Source of the DNA: a phage
DNA length: 64,000 nt
Sequence record: PZ540767.1
Reading direction: 5' to 3' (one strand)
Position numbers and translations under genes: made by a program. Of the stretch, positions 40,592-46,178 are shown piece by piece. The notes beneath the pieces are model-generated. The model searched no databases, had not been told where the DNA came from, and worked only from the letters and a program-made list of their open reading frames with translations. Positions within the stretch are counted from its first letter, which is position 1; each line of letters begins with the position of its first letter.

Positions 40592-41311
40592 ATGAATATT
40601 CGAACCACTAAGGTAGATGTGTACCTGGTTAATCCAGATGGATCGCCAGCTACTAATTTACGTTTTTACGTTAAACCATTGCGAGCAAGCTTCTGGTCAA
40701 CCTACCCAGGGGTTGCTATAGATGTGGAGCTTTGTGAAACTACGGACAGTACAGGGCATTGTATTTTAGATCTCGTTGCTCTGCCTTATCCATATGAGCT
40801 TACCTATGATGACTCTGATGATTCAATCCCTGGTAGCTTCTTGTTCTATGTCCCGGATGTAGACTTCACAGTTAATTTCCAGGATCTGATCGTTACCCGA
40901 GCTGATTCTCAGGATAAGTATGTAGATAATGCTCTTAACCAGATTATTGATGGTGTGGTTAAATCTAAGCATTATAGCGAAGTGGCTCAAGCAGCTTCTG
41001 AAGCTGCGAAGCAAGCGGAAGAAGCCATTGAGACACAAGCTCAAGTACTCGCACCACAGATTACACAAACTGAACAGATGTTAACAGAAGCTCAAGAGGC
41101 TTTGACTGAAGTTCAGCAAGCCAAATCAGACTTTGAAAGTACCAATGCTTCCATTGTTACTGCTGCGGGTATTATTCAAAACAGTGCTATTACTGGAAAG
41201 TTACCTATTGGGGAATACACCCTCTGGGTTGATGCTGATGGATTACTTCGTATTATCCATGGCAACCCAACAGGGGACAAAGATGGGGTTGTTGTGGGAT
41301 CTCAATCATAA
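40592..41311 (+). CDS. hypothetical tail-associated protein
   Basis: ATG at 40592 with AGGAG RBS; ORF-track start at 40484 would overlap thyX on the other strand; first gene of the plus-strand island. Confidence 0.5.
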   Translation: MNIRTTKVDVYLVNPDGSPATNLRFYVKPLRASFWSTYPGVAIDVELCETTDSTGHCILDLVALPYPYELTYDDSDDSIPGSFLFYVPDVDFTVNFQDLIVTRADSQDKYVDNALNQIIDGVVKSKHYSEVAQAASEAAKQAEEAIETQAQVLAPQITQTEQMLTEAQEALTEVQQAKSDFESTNASIVTAAGIIQNSAITGKLPIGEYTLWVDADGLLRIIHGNPTGDKDGVVVGSQS

Positions 41312-41389: not shown

Positions 41390-43627
41390 ATGTCTTGTAA
41401 TTGCACCAACAATTGCAATTGTGGTGATCCATGTTCAGATACCCAGATTCGTCGCATTGTTGATGATGCTGTAGCAGACCGCGTAGAGGACTTGGAAGGT
41501 ATTGCTTCTGACGCCCAAGGTTCTGCTACTGCTTCTGCAAACTCTGCAAACCAATCTGCACAATCTGCTACACAATCACAGCAATTTGCAACCACTGCTG
41601 GTAACAATGCCACTTCTGCTGCCCAGTCAGCACAGCAAGCTGCTGTATCTGCTACTGCTGCGGCTGAATCCGCGTCAGCAGCTGTTCAGGTTACTACTGG
41701 TTTAAAACAAGTAGCTGATGAGCTGACTGCTACTGCTTCTGGTTTATCTTCTAAGGTTGATCAGGCAAACCAGAATGCTGAATTAGCTGAGACTGCTCGT
41801 GATGAGGCTGTTGCTGCTGCTTCCAGTGCTCAAAATAGTGCTGCTACTTCCACAGCATCTGCCAGTGCTGCTAATGTGGCTGCTTCGGCTGCTGCTTCGT
41901 CGTCAGGCACTGCACAAACTGCTGCGGGTCAAGCAGGTGAGTACGCTGTACAAGCTGCTGAGTTAGTTTCTAATCTTGATACTAAGATTGATACTGCTGT
42001 ATCTACTGCACTGGATAATGCAACCGAAGATGTAATTAATGCTGCTACTGAACAGGCTACTTCAGCTGCAAACTCTGCATCTGCTGCTGCCAGTTCTTTA
42101 GAAACTATGTCCAGCACTCTCGCAGCTGCAACTACTAGTGCGGTTGCTCAAGCTACTGAAGATGCTGAAGCTGCACGAGATGCTGCTGAGTTAGCTCGTG
42201 ATCAGGCTAATGCAATAGCAACCTCTGTGGGACTGGTGCCTGATGAGGCTACTGGTTTAGCAAATACCACTGAAGGGCAGTATTTTACTGTAGGTCAGGG
42301 TACAGAATCTGATGCTGCAACTATCACCTACCGTAATGTTGGCGGGGTTGCTGTGCCAGTATTTACTTCTGTGGGTACGGCTGCTTTTACCAAACTGTCT
42401 ACTAAGTTCTTAAACCTGGTAACCCAGGTAGACTATGGAAATGCTGTTGCTGGTTTTATCGATGATGCAAACATGTCTCCTCTGTTTATTAATCCAGAAG
42501 GGTATGTGATCATTAACAACCTCAATTTCCTTGAGCAAGTGCAAGCTCTGCTTAATAAAATTGATGCTTTCTATAACTTCTTTAATAGCTATCCATCTGA
42601 TGAGTATGTCCAGAAGGGTGGCTTTATTGATGATGAAGGCAAACTTCCCCTGTACTTTGACCAGTATGGGGATGTTTGGTTGGGTGATGGCCCGGTTAAC
42701 CTCAGCAAATTTGTGCAGGATTACTCAGCACTGGTTACTAAGGTTAATGATGCAGTTTATGAGATCAATGGAACAGGTAATATTGTCTGTCATGGTGACT
42801 CATTAACTGCTGGTGCAGGTTCTGCTACAGGTCGTGGGTATGTTGAACGTTTACGTACTCGTCTTGCCCCACAGGGTATTACTGTAACTAAACGTGCTGT
42901 AGGTGGGCAGGGTGCCCAGGCTATCGCTACTCGACAAGGTGGTTATGTTAACCTGTTAACGCTGGAGAATAACATTCTTCCTGCTGCTGTTCAGCCAGTT
43001 AACATTGTATCCAGTTCCCAAAATCCAATCACCAGCCAAGGTGGTGGGCCTATCTCAGGTATGCTTAATGGTATTCGTGGTACTGTAGCTGCTACTTTCA
43101 ATGGCACTACCCGCCTTACTTATACCTTTACCCGAGCAGAGGCTGGAACTGCTGATGTCTATATTGATCCTGAATCTCCGTTTATCAAAACTGAAGACGG
43201 TCATGAATACGATATTGACATTATCTGGCTTGGTCGTAATAACACCTCAAGCCCTGACTTGGCTCAAATTTGTTTAGATGCTCTGGATGCTTGTGTTAAG
43301 CATCTTAAAGCTAAAAATAAACGTTTTGTGGTAATGTCCATCCTCAATGGTGCGTACTCCACTGAGTACAAGGGAGGCGAGGTTTACCAGCGTATTATTA
43401 ATGCAAACAATGCCATTAAGTACAAATACCCTGAGAACTATTTGGAAGTTCGTGGGCCATTGGTGCGTTCTTATAACCCATCTGTTCCTCAAGATGTGGT
43501 TGATTTTAACAATGATATTGTTCCTTCAAGTCTCCGTAATGATGCTATCCACTTAAATGACAGTGGGTATGATATCCTTGAAGAACTGGTTTACAACTTT
43601 TTGAAAAGTAAAGGATGGGTAGCCTAA
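41390..43627 (+). CDS. tail fibre/spike protein with C-terminal SGNH (GDSL) esterase domain
   Basis: 745 aa; Cys-rich N-terminus, long Ala/Ser/Thr-rich helical repeat region, then IVCHGDSLTAGAG GDSL block with downstream D/H residues. Confidence 0.7.
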   Translation: MSCNCTNNCNCGDPCSDTQIRRIVDDAVADRVEDLEGIASDAQGSATASANSANQSAQSATQSQQFATTAGNNATSAAQSAQQAAVSATAAAESASAAVQVTTGLKQVADELTATASGLSSKVDQANQNAELAETARDEAVAAASSAQNSAATSTASASAANVAASAAASSSGTAQTAAGQAGEYAVQAAELVSNLDTKIDTAVSTALDNATEDVINAATEQATSAANSASAAASSLETMSSTLAAATTSAVAQATEDAEAARDAAELARDQANAIATSVGLVPDEATGLANTTEGQYFTVGQGTESDAATITYRNVGGVAVPVFTSVGTAAFTKLSTKFLNLVTQVDYGNAVAGFIDDANMSPLFINPEGYVIINNLNFLEQVQALLNKIDAFYNFFNSYPSDEYVQKGGFIDDEGKLPLYFDQYGDVWLGDGPVNLSKFVQDYSALVTKVNDAVYEINGTGNIVCHGDSLTAGAGSATGRGYVERLRTRLAPQGITVTKRAVGGQGAQAIATRQGGYVNLLTLENNILPAAVQPVNIVSSSQNPITSQGGGPISGMLNGIRGTVAATFNGTTRLTYTFTRAEAGTADVYIDPESPFIKTEDGHEYDIDIIWLGRNNTSSPDLAQICLDALDACVKHLKAKNKRFVVMSILNGAYSTEYKGGEVYQRIINANNAIKYKYPENYLEVRGPLVRSYNPSVPQDVVDFNNDIVPSSLRNDAIHLNDSGYDILEELVYNFLKSKGWVA

Positions 43628-44403
43628 TGGGTAACTTCATTAAAATGGGCACTACGCTGAGTAATGCCAACCTGACTAAATTAACTGCTGATGCGACCAT
43701 CGATAACAGCACTGTAATGCTGATTGACTTTGGGCGTAAAACTTCAGTGCCTAACCAAACAGATCTGGTTAACGGTGATACTGTTGGCAACCTGGTTGAA
43801 GGTCAAGCAGGGGGTTCTGTAATTACCGGAACCAAATTCCTCTTCTCTGCTGCTGGTAAGTACATTACTAAGCAAGAAGGCGATATCTCAACCCGAATCC
43901 AGTTGCCTGATGTTTGTAAGGTTAAATCTACTGATCGTAGCTTCCAATTTAGCCTGTGGTTTACCCACATTGATAAAACGGATACTCAGGGTAGCCAAGC
44001 ATTGGGTGGTTATGCATCTAACTCCAGTAACCAGATGCCTTTTGCATTTTACTGGTATGATGGTCAATACAACTTGGGTTGTGCTGGTTCACGTACTGCA
44101 TTTGCTACTCCAGCGGCGGGAACAGTACACCAGTTGTCTGTTGCTTGTGACCTAGATCTGGGTATTCGTAAGTTCTATCACAACAATGAACTGATCCGTA
44201 CTGAGACTAATATTGGTCTTAGTGAAATGACTCAGCCTGCTGCTGGATCTCTGCCTTGGTTGTTCTACCTGGGTGGTGGTTTTAACAGCCGTGGTAACGT
44301 TAAGATGCACCGAGCATGGCTTGATATTAACGGTGGTGGTGCTAAGTTCGATGCAAAAGTAGCTGCGGACTACAACACCAACTACAGCCGATTTGCGGCT
44401 TAA
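43627..44403 (+). CDS. tail fibre-associated protein, possible receptor-binding jelly-roll domain
   Basis: ATG at 43627 overlaps the upstream stop (TAATG); Gly/aromatic-rich beta-type composition; followed by terminator. Confidence 0.45.
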   Translation: MGNFIKMGTTLSNANLTKLTADATIDNSTVMLIDFGRKTSVPNQTDLVNGDTVGNLVEGQAGGSVITGTKFLFSAAGKYITKQEGDISTRIQLPDVCKVKSTDRSFQFSLWFTHIDKTDTQGSQALGGYASNSSNQMPFAFYWYDGQYNLGCAGSRTAFATPAAGTVHQLSVACDLDLGIRKFYHNNELIRTETNIGLSEMTQPAAGSLPWLFYLGGGFNSRGNVKMHRAWLDINGGGAKFDAKVAADYNTNYSRFAA

Positions 44404-44420
44404 GTTAGTAACTTAGAACT

Positions 44421-44446
44421 AAGCCCCTTTATTAGGGGCTTTTTTA
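44421..44446 (+). terminator. rho-independent terminator
   Basis: AAGCCCCT-TTATT-AGGGGCTT hairpin followed by TTTTT. Confidence 0.8.
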
Positions 44447-44461
44447 TATATGAGGTTTATT

Positions 44462-44950
44462 ATGAAAATGTCGAATGAAGGACGCAAAGTAACTAAGTAT
44501 TTTGAGTCCCTTAAATTACGTGCTTACCCTGATCCTGCTACTGGGGGTAAACCATGGACTATTGGGTATGGTCATACTGGCCCAGATGTTTATCCTGGTT
44601 TGGCAATTTCGCAAACCAGAGCTGAACAGTTGCTTGATGCTGACCTTGCTAAGGCTGAAGCAGAAGTAAACAAGTATGGGCATAACCTTACCCAAGGTCA
44701 GTTCGATTGCCTTGTGGACATGGTATTTAATATGGGATCTGGTTTTATCCGGCCTGACAACATCAAGGGTGATTTTGATGACTTTGTTGCATCGGGTAAT
44801 ACTGCTGAGATGCGTAAACGTATTCCTCAATTCCGTATGGCCAACGGTAAAGTTATGAGAGGTTTAGTACGTCGTCGTGCTGCTAACCTTGCTACATGGG
44901 ACGGTAAGTCTGGTGATGAAGCAATTAAAATAGGGGTAAATGCTGCATGA
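44462..44950 (+). CDS. endolysin, GH24 T4-type lysozyme
   Basis: FESLKL...YPDPATGG...TIGYGHT catalytic E/D/T triad pattern and DCLVDMVFNMG motif; GAGG RBS before ATG 44462. Confidence 0.85.
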   Translation: MKMSNEGRKVTKYFESLKLRAYPDPATGGKPWTIGYGHTGPDVYPGLAISQTRAEQLLDADLAKAEAEVNKYGHNLTQGQFDCLVDMVFNMGSGFIRPDNIKGDFDDFVASGNTAEMRKRIPQFRMANGKVMRGLVRRRAANLATWDGKSGDEAIKIGVNAA

Positions 44951-45734: not shown

Positions 45735-46178
45735 ATGTCTAAAGTCCCCTCTATCGGTGCTGGTGTTATCACTACCGATGATGTGCTGGCACAAGGCTAT
45801 GATTTTATCCCCCTGAAAATGGGTGGTATGGCTAAAGTGCCTGCTGATGTAGCCGCTGCTCAATCTAAAGACGTCACTGGTGCTGCTTATACTAAACCAG
45901 CAGCTCTGAGTCTGACTACTGATCTGACTGCTACTAAATCTGTTGCTGAAGGTGCTGCCCTGGAACTGAAAGTAGTTCCTGCTGGCGGTGTTGCACCTTA
46001 CAGCGTTACCTGGTTTAAAGGTGGCTCTGCTATCCAGACTCTGGGTAGTTCTACCCTTAACCTGGGTGCAGCTACTCTGGATATGGCTGGCTCTTACCAT
46101 GCTGAAGTCTACGACGCAGCTGGTAAAGAGATTCAGTCTACTACCTGCGTAGTGACTGTCACTGAAGCTGGTGGTTAA
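45735..46178 (+). CDS. Ig-like domain capsid decoration protein (N4 gp17-like)
   Basis: 147 aa; GAGGAAA RBS; beta-sandwich-type pattern YSVTWFKGG...GSYHAEVYD...CVVTV; followed by terminator. Confidence 0.55.
   Translation: MSKVPSIGAGVITTDDVLAQGYDFIPLKMGGMAKVPADVAAAQSKDVTGAAYTKPAALSLTTDLTATKSVAEGAALELKVVPAGGVAPYSVTWFKGGSAIQTLGSSTLNLGAATLDMAGSYHAEVYDAAGKEIQSTTCVVTVTEAGG

Follow-up and report, generated by a model that had tools for sequence, protein, structure and literature searches.

What kind of receptor-binding protein (RBP) does an N4-like phage carry when the gene in its receptor-binding locus ends in a GDSL motif? This question was posed by the plus-strand gene at 41390..43627 of PZ540767.1, a stretch of phage DNA of 64,000 nucleotides (nt) that was analyzed at full length and is called the window here. 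An earlier note had pointed out this gene and read its product of 745 amino acids (aa) as a receptor-modifying tailspike with a C-terminal SGNH esterase domain. Our analysis showed that the C-terminal 285 aa of the product form an SGNH hydrolase domain, which belongs to the esterase subfamily of the epsilon15 tailspike and has a full set of catalytic residues. The product is likely to be the receptor-binding fibre of an N4-like phage of the Efbeekayvirus type, with an SGNH tip that is predicted to deacylate a host glycan.

The C-terminal domain is an SGNH hydrolase

The fibre gene and its parts, all on the plus strand, are as follows.

41390..43627, plus strand, tail fibre gene, 745 aa plus stop, ATG start
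41390..41437, plus strand, Cys-rich N-terminal cap, aa 1-16 MSCNCTNNCNCGDPCS, with Cys at 3, 5, 9, 11 and 15
41438..42289, plus strand, Ala/Ser/Thr-rich amphipathic alpha-helical shaft, aa 17-300, from composition and periodicity
42290..42769, plus strand, beta/alpha shaft region, aa 301-460, from motif scan and predicted secondary structure
42770..43624, plus strand, SGNH/GDSL esterase domain, aa 461-745, from Pfam, model, fold search and conservation
42800-42802, plus strand, codon of Ser471 in SGNH block I (G469-D-S471-L)
42905-42907, plus strand, SGNH block II (G506)
43238-43240, plus strand, codon of N617 in SGNH block III (G615-R-N617)
43541-43543 and 43550-43552, plus strand, SGNH block V (D718-A-I-H721, DxxH)

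The GDSL block that had been noticed in the C-terminal third lies within the SGNH domain as IVCHGDSLTAGAG at aa 465-477. Pfam Lipase_GDSL_2 matched aa 467-515 with 33.3 bits (cut-off 32.9). An AlphaFold2 model of aa 300-745, calculated from a 34-sequence alignment, had a predicted local distance difference test score (pLDDT) of 93-97 from about aa 460 to the C-terminus. When the Protein Data Bank (PDB) was searched with this model using Foldseek, all top matches were GDSL/SGNH enzymes, and the predicted fold is the three-layer alpha/beta/alpha, flavodoxin-like fold of the SGNH superfamily. The sequence features of the superfamily are likewise present, namely block I, the oxyanion-hole residues of blocks II and III and the DxxH of block V, with a beta-rich insertion of ~80-100 aa (about aa 521-600) separating blocks II and III.

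Conservation was assessed at two depths. In 25 homologues G469, D470, S471, L472, G506, G615 and N617 were invariant, and D718 and H721 were conserved in at least 90%. In a set of 178 representatives the counts, given for the sequences aligned at each position, were 144 of 149 for S471, 155 of 168 for Gly at G506, 176 of 176 for G615 and 175 of 176 for N617, while Asp718 was kept in 169 of 174 and His721 in all 174. Structure prediction, fold searches and conservation of all SGNH blocks thus carry the assignment beyond chance. The C-terminal SGNH domain proposed in the earlier note is borne out, and the Ser, Asp and His residues expected of it (S471, D718, H721) are present in the sequence.

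The family is broad. An exhaustive phmmer search with the SGNH domain retrieved 3259 clusters (50% identity) at E<=1e-3 and 1725 at E<=1e-10. The domain was C-terminal in 162 of the 178 representatives, in proteins of 160-1040 aa, and this near-constant placement at the extreme C-terminus marks it as a receptor-binding tip that can be swapped. The sole solved relative detectable by sequence was the tailspike gp20 of Salmonella phage epsilon15 (PDB 9sij/9sim), which phmmer matched with E 1e-9 over aa 600-743. A family profile run against the PDB extended the match to residues 97-369 of the 371-residue chain 9sij_A (E 4.2e-31), and the family hidden Markov model (HMM) matched aa 781-1068 of gp20 with E 9.5e-42. 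Homology to the epsilon15-type esterase module (phrog_19652-like) is therefore full-length, with the beta insertion included. The corresponding part of gp20 is called 'a protruding esterase domain' in the title of a preprint (bioRxiv 10.64898/2026.07.31.742079), and the relationship had been noted in a 2010 GenBank annotation of the homologue in Rhodococcus phage ReqiPoco6, 'similar to epsilon15 tail fiber Esterase, SGNH hydrolase domain'.

Two forms of block I occur in the family. The fibre studied here and loci L004, L005, L007 and L012 (ReqiPoco6) have the GDS[LM] type; epsilon15 gp20 (L008), phages JZBo1 and PEAT2 and the Klebsiella and Sodalis prophages (L010, L011, L013, L014) have GHSF. 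Ser and DxxH are retained in both. The SGNH domain of Pseudomonas phage KPP21 was considered as a member of the same subfamily and ruled out, the family HMM matching it with E 0.007 over block I only.

The fibre has a Cys-rich cap and a coiled-coil shaft

The fibre open reading frame (ORF) at 41390..43627 is preceded by a GGGAG ribosome-binding site 8-12 nt 5' of its ATG, and it matches the PHROG families phrog_11419 'tail fiber protein' (E 1.9e-42) and phrog_19652 (E 2.6e-50). Five of its first 15 residues are Cys, in line with the Cys-rich N-terminus of the earlier note. The counterpart of this cap in Klebsiella phage pKP-BM327-1.2 is MSCNCINQCNCADPCSD, and a form with three Cys, CGGSCNPCTS, is found in RBP1 of phage P19-618. 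A C-x-P-C-[ST] core recurs in the primary RBPs of Efbeekayviruses, which hints at a staple held by metal or disulfide or at a part in docking; which role the cap might have, that of a trimer staple, a metal site or a docking element, is speculation.

The following segment had been described as about 300 aa of Ala/Ser/Thr-rich helical repeats. Its composition and helical character were confirmed, but true sequence repeats were not. Residues 31-300 consist of 30% Ala, 13% Ser and 11% Thr (54% combined), and Pro is absent between residues 15 and 283. The hydrophobic periodicity is 3.5-3.6 residues, with a power of 83-86 versus a 95th percentile of 26-34 in shuffled sequences; the same test gave no such periodicity for the SGNH region. 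Because the stretch is free of Pro and its periodicity exceeds that of shuffles, the 'repeats' correspond to the heptad-type periodicity of an amphipathic helix. An origin from tandem repeats in the DNA was ruled out, since Tandem Repeats Finder reported two trivial 9/21-nt arrays only. Weak PDB matches of the shaft were to the coiled-coil fibres T7 gp17 and reovirus sigma1, and aa 17-300 probably form a trimeric coiled coil.

In the beta/alpha region that follows, the secondary structure was taken from the monomer model, in which pLDDT is just 37-75 there. A hairpin motif, 'GFIDD..P(L)...G.V', occurs twice, at aa 355-373 (42452..42508) and aa 411-429 (42620..42676), and in the model each copy is followed by a helix. 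Additional copies are present as a ~90-aa insertion in the homologues from Ptacy1537 and P0008/P0010/P0011, so that the length of the shaft appears to vary by the number of hairpin units.

A foreign distal fibre has been joined to a resident N-terminus

The window belongs to an N4-like phage (Schitoviridae), as seen from its typical structural module and from an ORF that codes for a virion RNA polymerase of 3560 aa. Its first 25 kb share 93-94% nt identity with the Klebsiella Efbeekayviruses pKP-BM327-1.2, FBKp27, HS106, P184 and others, and across the receptor-binding locus the identity to a metagenomic contig of 76 kb reaches 97.7%. Besides the fibre gene, the locus contains the following features.

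40592..41311, plus strand, tail anchor/adaptor protein, 239 aa, first gene of the receptor-binding locus
41783..44442, plus strand, exchanged cassette, without nt similarity to the nearest relative pKP-BM327-1.2
43627..44403, plus strand, partner gene, 258 aa, phrog_19357, predicted ConA-like/LamG-type jelly roll, start set by homologues
44421..44448, plus strand, strong hairpin of the intrinsic-terminator type, AAGCCCCTTTATTAGGGGCTT and then a T run, closing the adaptor-fibre-partner unit
44450..44950, the phage's own endolysin

The gene order here is thyX, 239-aa anchor, SGNH fibre, 258-aa gene, terminator (44421..44441), endolysin. In P19-618 it is thyX, 232-aa anchor, RBP1 (924 aa, beta-helix), RBP2 (722 aa, pectate-lyase-like), small ORF, endolysin. 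The fibre thus occupies the place of an Efbeekayvirus primary RBP, between thyX/anchor and the lysis cassette, and has the shared Cys-rich N-terminus. RBP1 and RBP2 of P19-618 match the Beta_helix and Pect-lyase families; a Pfam scan found no beta-helix or pectate-lyase body in the fibre, in which the SGNH cassette makes up the distal part instead.

Comparison with pKP-BM327-1.2 located the junctions. The left flank is 85% identical up to 41782 and the right flank 92% identical from 44443, and the gap at 41783..44442 identifies the exchanged unit as the distal fibre with its partner gene and terminator. On the left, the recombination boundary falls within low-complexity coiled coil, near nt 41783 (aa ~131), and aa 1-140 are 81% identical to the 1140-aa RBP of pKP-BM327-1.2. 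Since similarity resumes at 44443, the terminator moves with the cassette. This comparison shows that the N-terminal ~140-200 aa, comprising the cap and the start of the coiled coil, are the conserved virion-proximal module of the lineage, and that the fibre from about aa 131, the 258-aa gene and the terminator are a foreign cassette. A scan of the receptor-binding locus for sigma-70 promoters gave no signal above shuffles.

The anchor is 86% identical to its counterpart in pKP-BM327-1.2 and 40-45% identical to a 'tail protein' of Klebsiella, Pectobacterium and Kosakonia N4-like phages, and its position matches the order thyX, adaptor, RBPs of P19-618. It matches PHROG tail-protein families via their N-termini only (phrog_20500 positions 2-186 of 1365). 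Its aa 5-177 also align to aa 2-169 of the SGNH fibre of KPP21 (32% identity, E 7.5e-15). The anchor is probably the virion-proximal piece on which the fibre docks, docking itself being suggested by analogy. An identical copy of the anchor (L006) bears the precomputed label PF26986 'Cap_depo', which the Pfam scan did not reproduce.

The SGNH domain travels with a partner gene

The start codon of the 258-aa partner gene overlaps the fibre stop codon (TAATG). A start at 43615, given by the mechanical ORF list, was ruled out by the N-termini of homologues, and the ATG at 43627 is preferred. Among named phages, the closest to carry the cassette is Ptacy1537, a T7-like Ahphunavirus of E. coli, with a fibre 49% identical over aa 275-744 and, directly after it, a gene 64% identical to the partner. 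Nearer metagenomic relatives share 73-77% identity over aa 300-745; they include P0002, which is encoded on a 70-kb contig with an SU10-type portal and after which a partner gene of 83% identity comes next. The pair is also present in Klebsiella phage JZBo1, in Pectobacterium phage PEAT2, in a K. pneumoniae prophage and in a Sodalis prophage whose fibre has the side-tail-fibre N-terminal domain phage_tail_N. In a P2-like prophage (L005) it occupies the gpH/gpG positions, and in an E217/Pam3-like prophage (L007) it follows the baseplate genes. Partner homologues directly after an SGNH gene were located as follows.

L002, 6641-7414
L004, 8148-8924
L005, 7575-8372
L007, 7875-8687
L010, 4289-5098
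L011, 4346-5170
L013, 5001-5816
L014, 5001-5813

The partner thus follows the SGNH gene in N4-, T7-, SU10-, P2-, E217- and lambda-like phages and prophages. Among distant SGNH members the homologue lies directly 3', with a stop/start overlap in most. Nine contexts were reached via the SGNH domain, and a partner was detectable in six. Two others, Stenotrophomonas phage C121 and ReqiPoco6, have a downstream gene of the same size that overlaps in the same way and is without demonstrable homology to the partner; in the ninth, epsilon15, no partner follows gp20 and a terminator stands there instead. Neither the downstream genes of C121 and ReqiPoco6 nor the Laminin_G_3 domain fused to SGNH in P0027 could be identified with the partner, BLAST, HMM and hhalign comparisons all being non-significant; what links the three to it is size, position, sub-threshold Laminin_G_3 matches and one PHROG link. 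The gene after the SGNH fibre of ReqiPoco6, gp004 (L012 4349-5209), matches the C-terminal 270 aa of phrog_36751 'minor tail protein' (1057 aa), from which it follows that, in actinophages, the gene in the partner position can exist as a fusion with a tail protein.

All detected partner homologues fall in phrog_19357 'unknown function', and no Pfam family was matched above threshold by any of them. A sub-threshold match to Laminin_G_3 (E about 1e-3) was seen in four of the eight downstream genes tested, the best phage structural match of the partner was a virion protein, the proteins to which it was likened include CBM40 sialic-acid-binding modules and pentraxins, and in the P2-like and lambda-like contexts the gene sits at the Tfa/gpG position. 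We infer that the partner is either a lectin, that is, a carbohydrate-binding subunit of the tip, or a dedicated assembly factor. A broader proposal, to which we lean almost as much as away from it, is that the mobile unit is a two-component cassette made up of the SGNH tip, an obligate, translationally coupled lectin-fold partner of ~260 aa and its own terminator, with the partner as second subunit of esterase fibres. It could then be a carbohydrate-binding adhesin of the tip or represent a new class of assembly factors for tail fibres at the P2 gpG/lambda Tfa position. No description of a linkage between SGNH tip and partner was found in the literature searched. Klebsiella prophage SGNH fibres are active when made alone, so the partner is probably dispensable for chemistry on small substrates, if these fibres are of the epsilon15-type subfamily.

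Proposed mode of action and alternative explanations

Several lines of evidence support a role in receptor binding. The locus is syntenic with the tailspike genes of P19-618 and the N-terminus is common to the RBP of pKP-BM327-1.2, both of which argue for a virion protein. Relatives of the fibre occur in the P2 gpH position or after baseplate genes, or have an N-domain that is of the T7 tail-fibre type (PF03906) or of the lambda stf type, and these tail-module relatives, together with the PHROG 'tail fiber' labels, lend further support. In our model, three chains would form a long coiled-coil fibre of ~40 nm (284 residues at about 0.15 nm each), docked by its N-terminus on the 239-aa anchor at the tail and bearing three SGNH domains at the distal tip. 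Ser471 would be the nucleophile, with His721 and Asp718 to activate it, and the oxyanion hole would be made up of Gly506 and Asn617. The tip may bind a capsule or O-antigen of an enterobacterial host that carries O-acyl groups, most likely O-acetyl, and hydrolyze the ester, leaving the glycan chain uncut. Repeated cycles of binding and deacetylation would make attachment specific, reversible and processive, as in G7C gp63.1, and the virion could thereby advance as far as the cell surface. A glycan-binding lid is probably formed by the beta insertion (about aa 521-600), and the lectin-fold partner may act as a second carbohydrate-binding subunit of the tip or as a dedicated assembly factor. The receptor-modifying role put forward in the earlier note is thus supported by the RBP locus and the SGNH family, with esterase activity as a prediction.

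Five points weigh against this interpretation. The Lipase_GDSL_2 match is marginal and covers block I only. The catalytic set was judged by residue conservation and not by the geometry of the model. The fibre is known here from its sequence and a predicted structure. Trimerization and docking to the anchor are proposed by analogy. Finally, the host signal appears mixed as judged from sequence relationships, with a Klebsiella backbone and an E. coli phage as closest named carrier of the cassette.

Among the alternatives, the SGNH domain might be a lipase or acyl-hydrolase that acts on lipid A acyl chains, outer-membrane phospholipids or lipoproteins and so loosens the outer membrane at the attachment site, which we regard as improbable. 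Slightly less probable still is a catalytically silent SGNH fold that serves as a lectin-like receptor-binding module. Receptor-binding tips are often enzyme-derived, and catalysis by the fibre has been read from sequence and model; however, four SGNH blocks including Ser and Asp-His are kept across 178 diverged representatives, and such conservation of catalytic residues points to selection for catalysis and not for binding alone. We think it very unlikely that the domain is an Ape-like peptidoglycan or cell-wall O-acetyl esterase or an acetyl-transferase aiding wall penetration. Such enzymes ranked lower than generic and carbohydrate esterases, the peptidoglycan of a Gram-negative host is out of reach of a distal fibre tip until DNA is ejected, a transferase would depend on an extracellular acetyl donor, and the phage has an endolysin of its own. 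A soluble or secreted non-virion esterase, coded beside the lysis genes, is the least credible, for although virion membership has been read from genes alone, the N-terminal module common to the sister-phage RBP, the coiled-coil shaft, the synteny with tailspike genes and relatives in tail modules of at least five phage types all speak against it. No rival is better supported than an esterase fibre.

Relation to known esterase receptor-binding proteins

Epsilon15 gp20 is the closest characterized system; its SGNH domain belongs to the same subfamily by sequence, is C-terminal and keeps the block I Ser and the block V DxxH. It differs in that the domain sits on a 1070-aa barrel-shaped tailspike, which also binds O-antigen at several sites according to the preprint (bioRxiv 10.64898/2026.07.31.742079), whereas here it forms the tip of a coiled-coil fibre without another enzymatic domain. 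Block I reads GHSF in epsilon15 and GDSL in the fibre, and gp20 is followed by a terminator, the fibre by its partner gene.

The earlier comparison with tailspike gp63.1 of phage G7C (PDB 4qnl) would apply at the level of the proposed mechanism, attachment by binding and deacetylation having been described for this protein (Prokhorov et al. 2017, as cited in PMC11654681 and PMC13123978). Orthology was ruled out, as sequence homology was found neither in the SGNH domain nor in the N-terminal attachment domain. The tailspikes of the Shigella N4-like phages Moo19 (gp82) and B2 (gp48/49) hydrolyze 4-nitrophenyl acetate, and infection depends on O-acetylation of the O-antigen (PMC11654681). These phages are Schitoviridae like the phage studied here but belong to another genus and have another RBP architecture. 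In phmmer and profile searches against the PDB their tailspikes gave no sequence match to the fibre, and B2 gp48/49 (9d84_A) was a weak structural match at Foldseek rank 25.

The Klebsiella prophage fibres 164_08-KL2 and 174_38-KL55 are 'brush-like' with a C-terminal SGNH domain, are active on p-nitrophenyl acetate and have been proposed as capsule deacetylases that predict K-type (PMC13123978); they are likened to the fibre by description and not by sequence comparison. Klebsiella prophages also carry the epsilon15-type SGNH and partner pair (L013), as does the phage studied here. The prophage fibres belong to temperate phages, whereas here the backbone is that of a virulent N4-like phage, normally equipped with beta-helix depolymerases. 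KPP21 ORF096, an 'SGNH hydrolase-type esterase domain protein' of a Pseudomonas N4-like phage (Migulavirinae), has an N-terminal region of ~170 aa homologous to the 239-aa anchor and an SGNH domain too; there, anchor and esterase are one polypeptide of 1056 aa, whereas here they are encoded by two genes. Gp41 of Acinetobacter phage Aristophanes is a precedent for an active SGNH RBP, according to a review (PMC11058221).

SGNH esterase RBPs are already well documented, including those of Schitoviridae and Klebsiella phages, and SGNH esterase fibres are a recognized common alternative to depolymerases against capsule or O-antigen (PMC11654681, PMC13123978); the fibre adds no new principle. Two aspects stand out mildly, of which only the second is mildly new. 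One is that a Klebsiella N4-like backbone of the depolymerase type has changed over to an esterase fibre, with the junction mapped. The other is the tie between the SGNH tip and an uncharacterized lectin-fold partner across podo-, myo- and siphovirus contexts. The locus is a natural experiment in which the beta-helix module of an Efbeekayvirus was replaced, with the breakpoint in the coiled-coil shaft, by an esterase cassette that also occurs in coliphages, and it is of use for host-range prediction and RBP engineering. The lectin-like partner is worth including when such fibres are expressed or transplanted; if the two-component proposal is true, it would be a previously unrecognized second subunit of esterase fibres.

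Two further observations concern the surroundings of these loci. The RBP gene of pKP-BM327-1.2 is unannotated in GenBank because it abuts the origin of the record (L001 6987-10405 joined to L016, OP413827.1), and a short duplicated stretch at the OP413827.1 origin suggests terminal redundancy in the assembly. In the window, a gene just 3' of the lysis genes (45735..46178, plus strand) encodes a 147-aa protein with an Ig-like domain, related to PHROGs of Hoc-like head decoration or Ig-containing tail proteins, and its position is conserved with P19-618.

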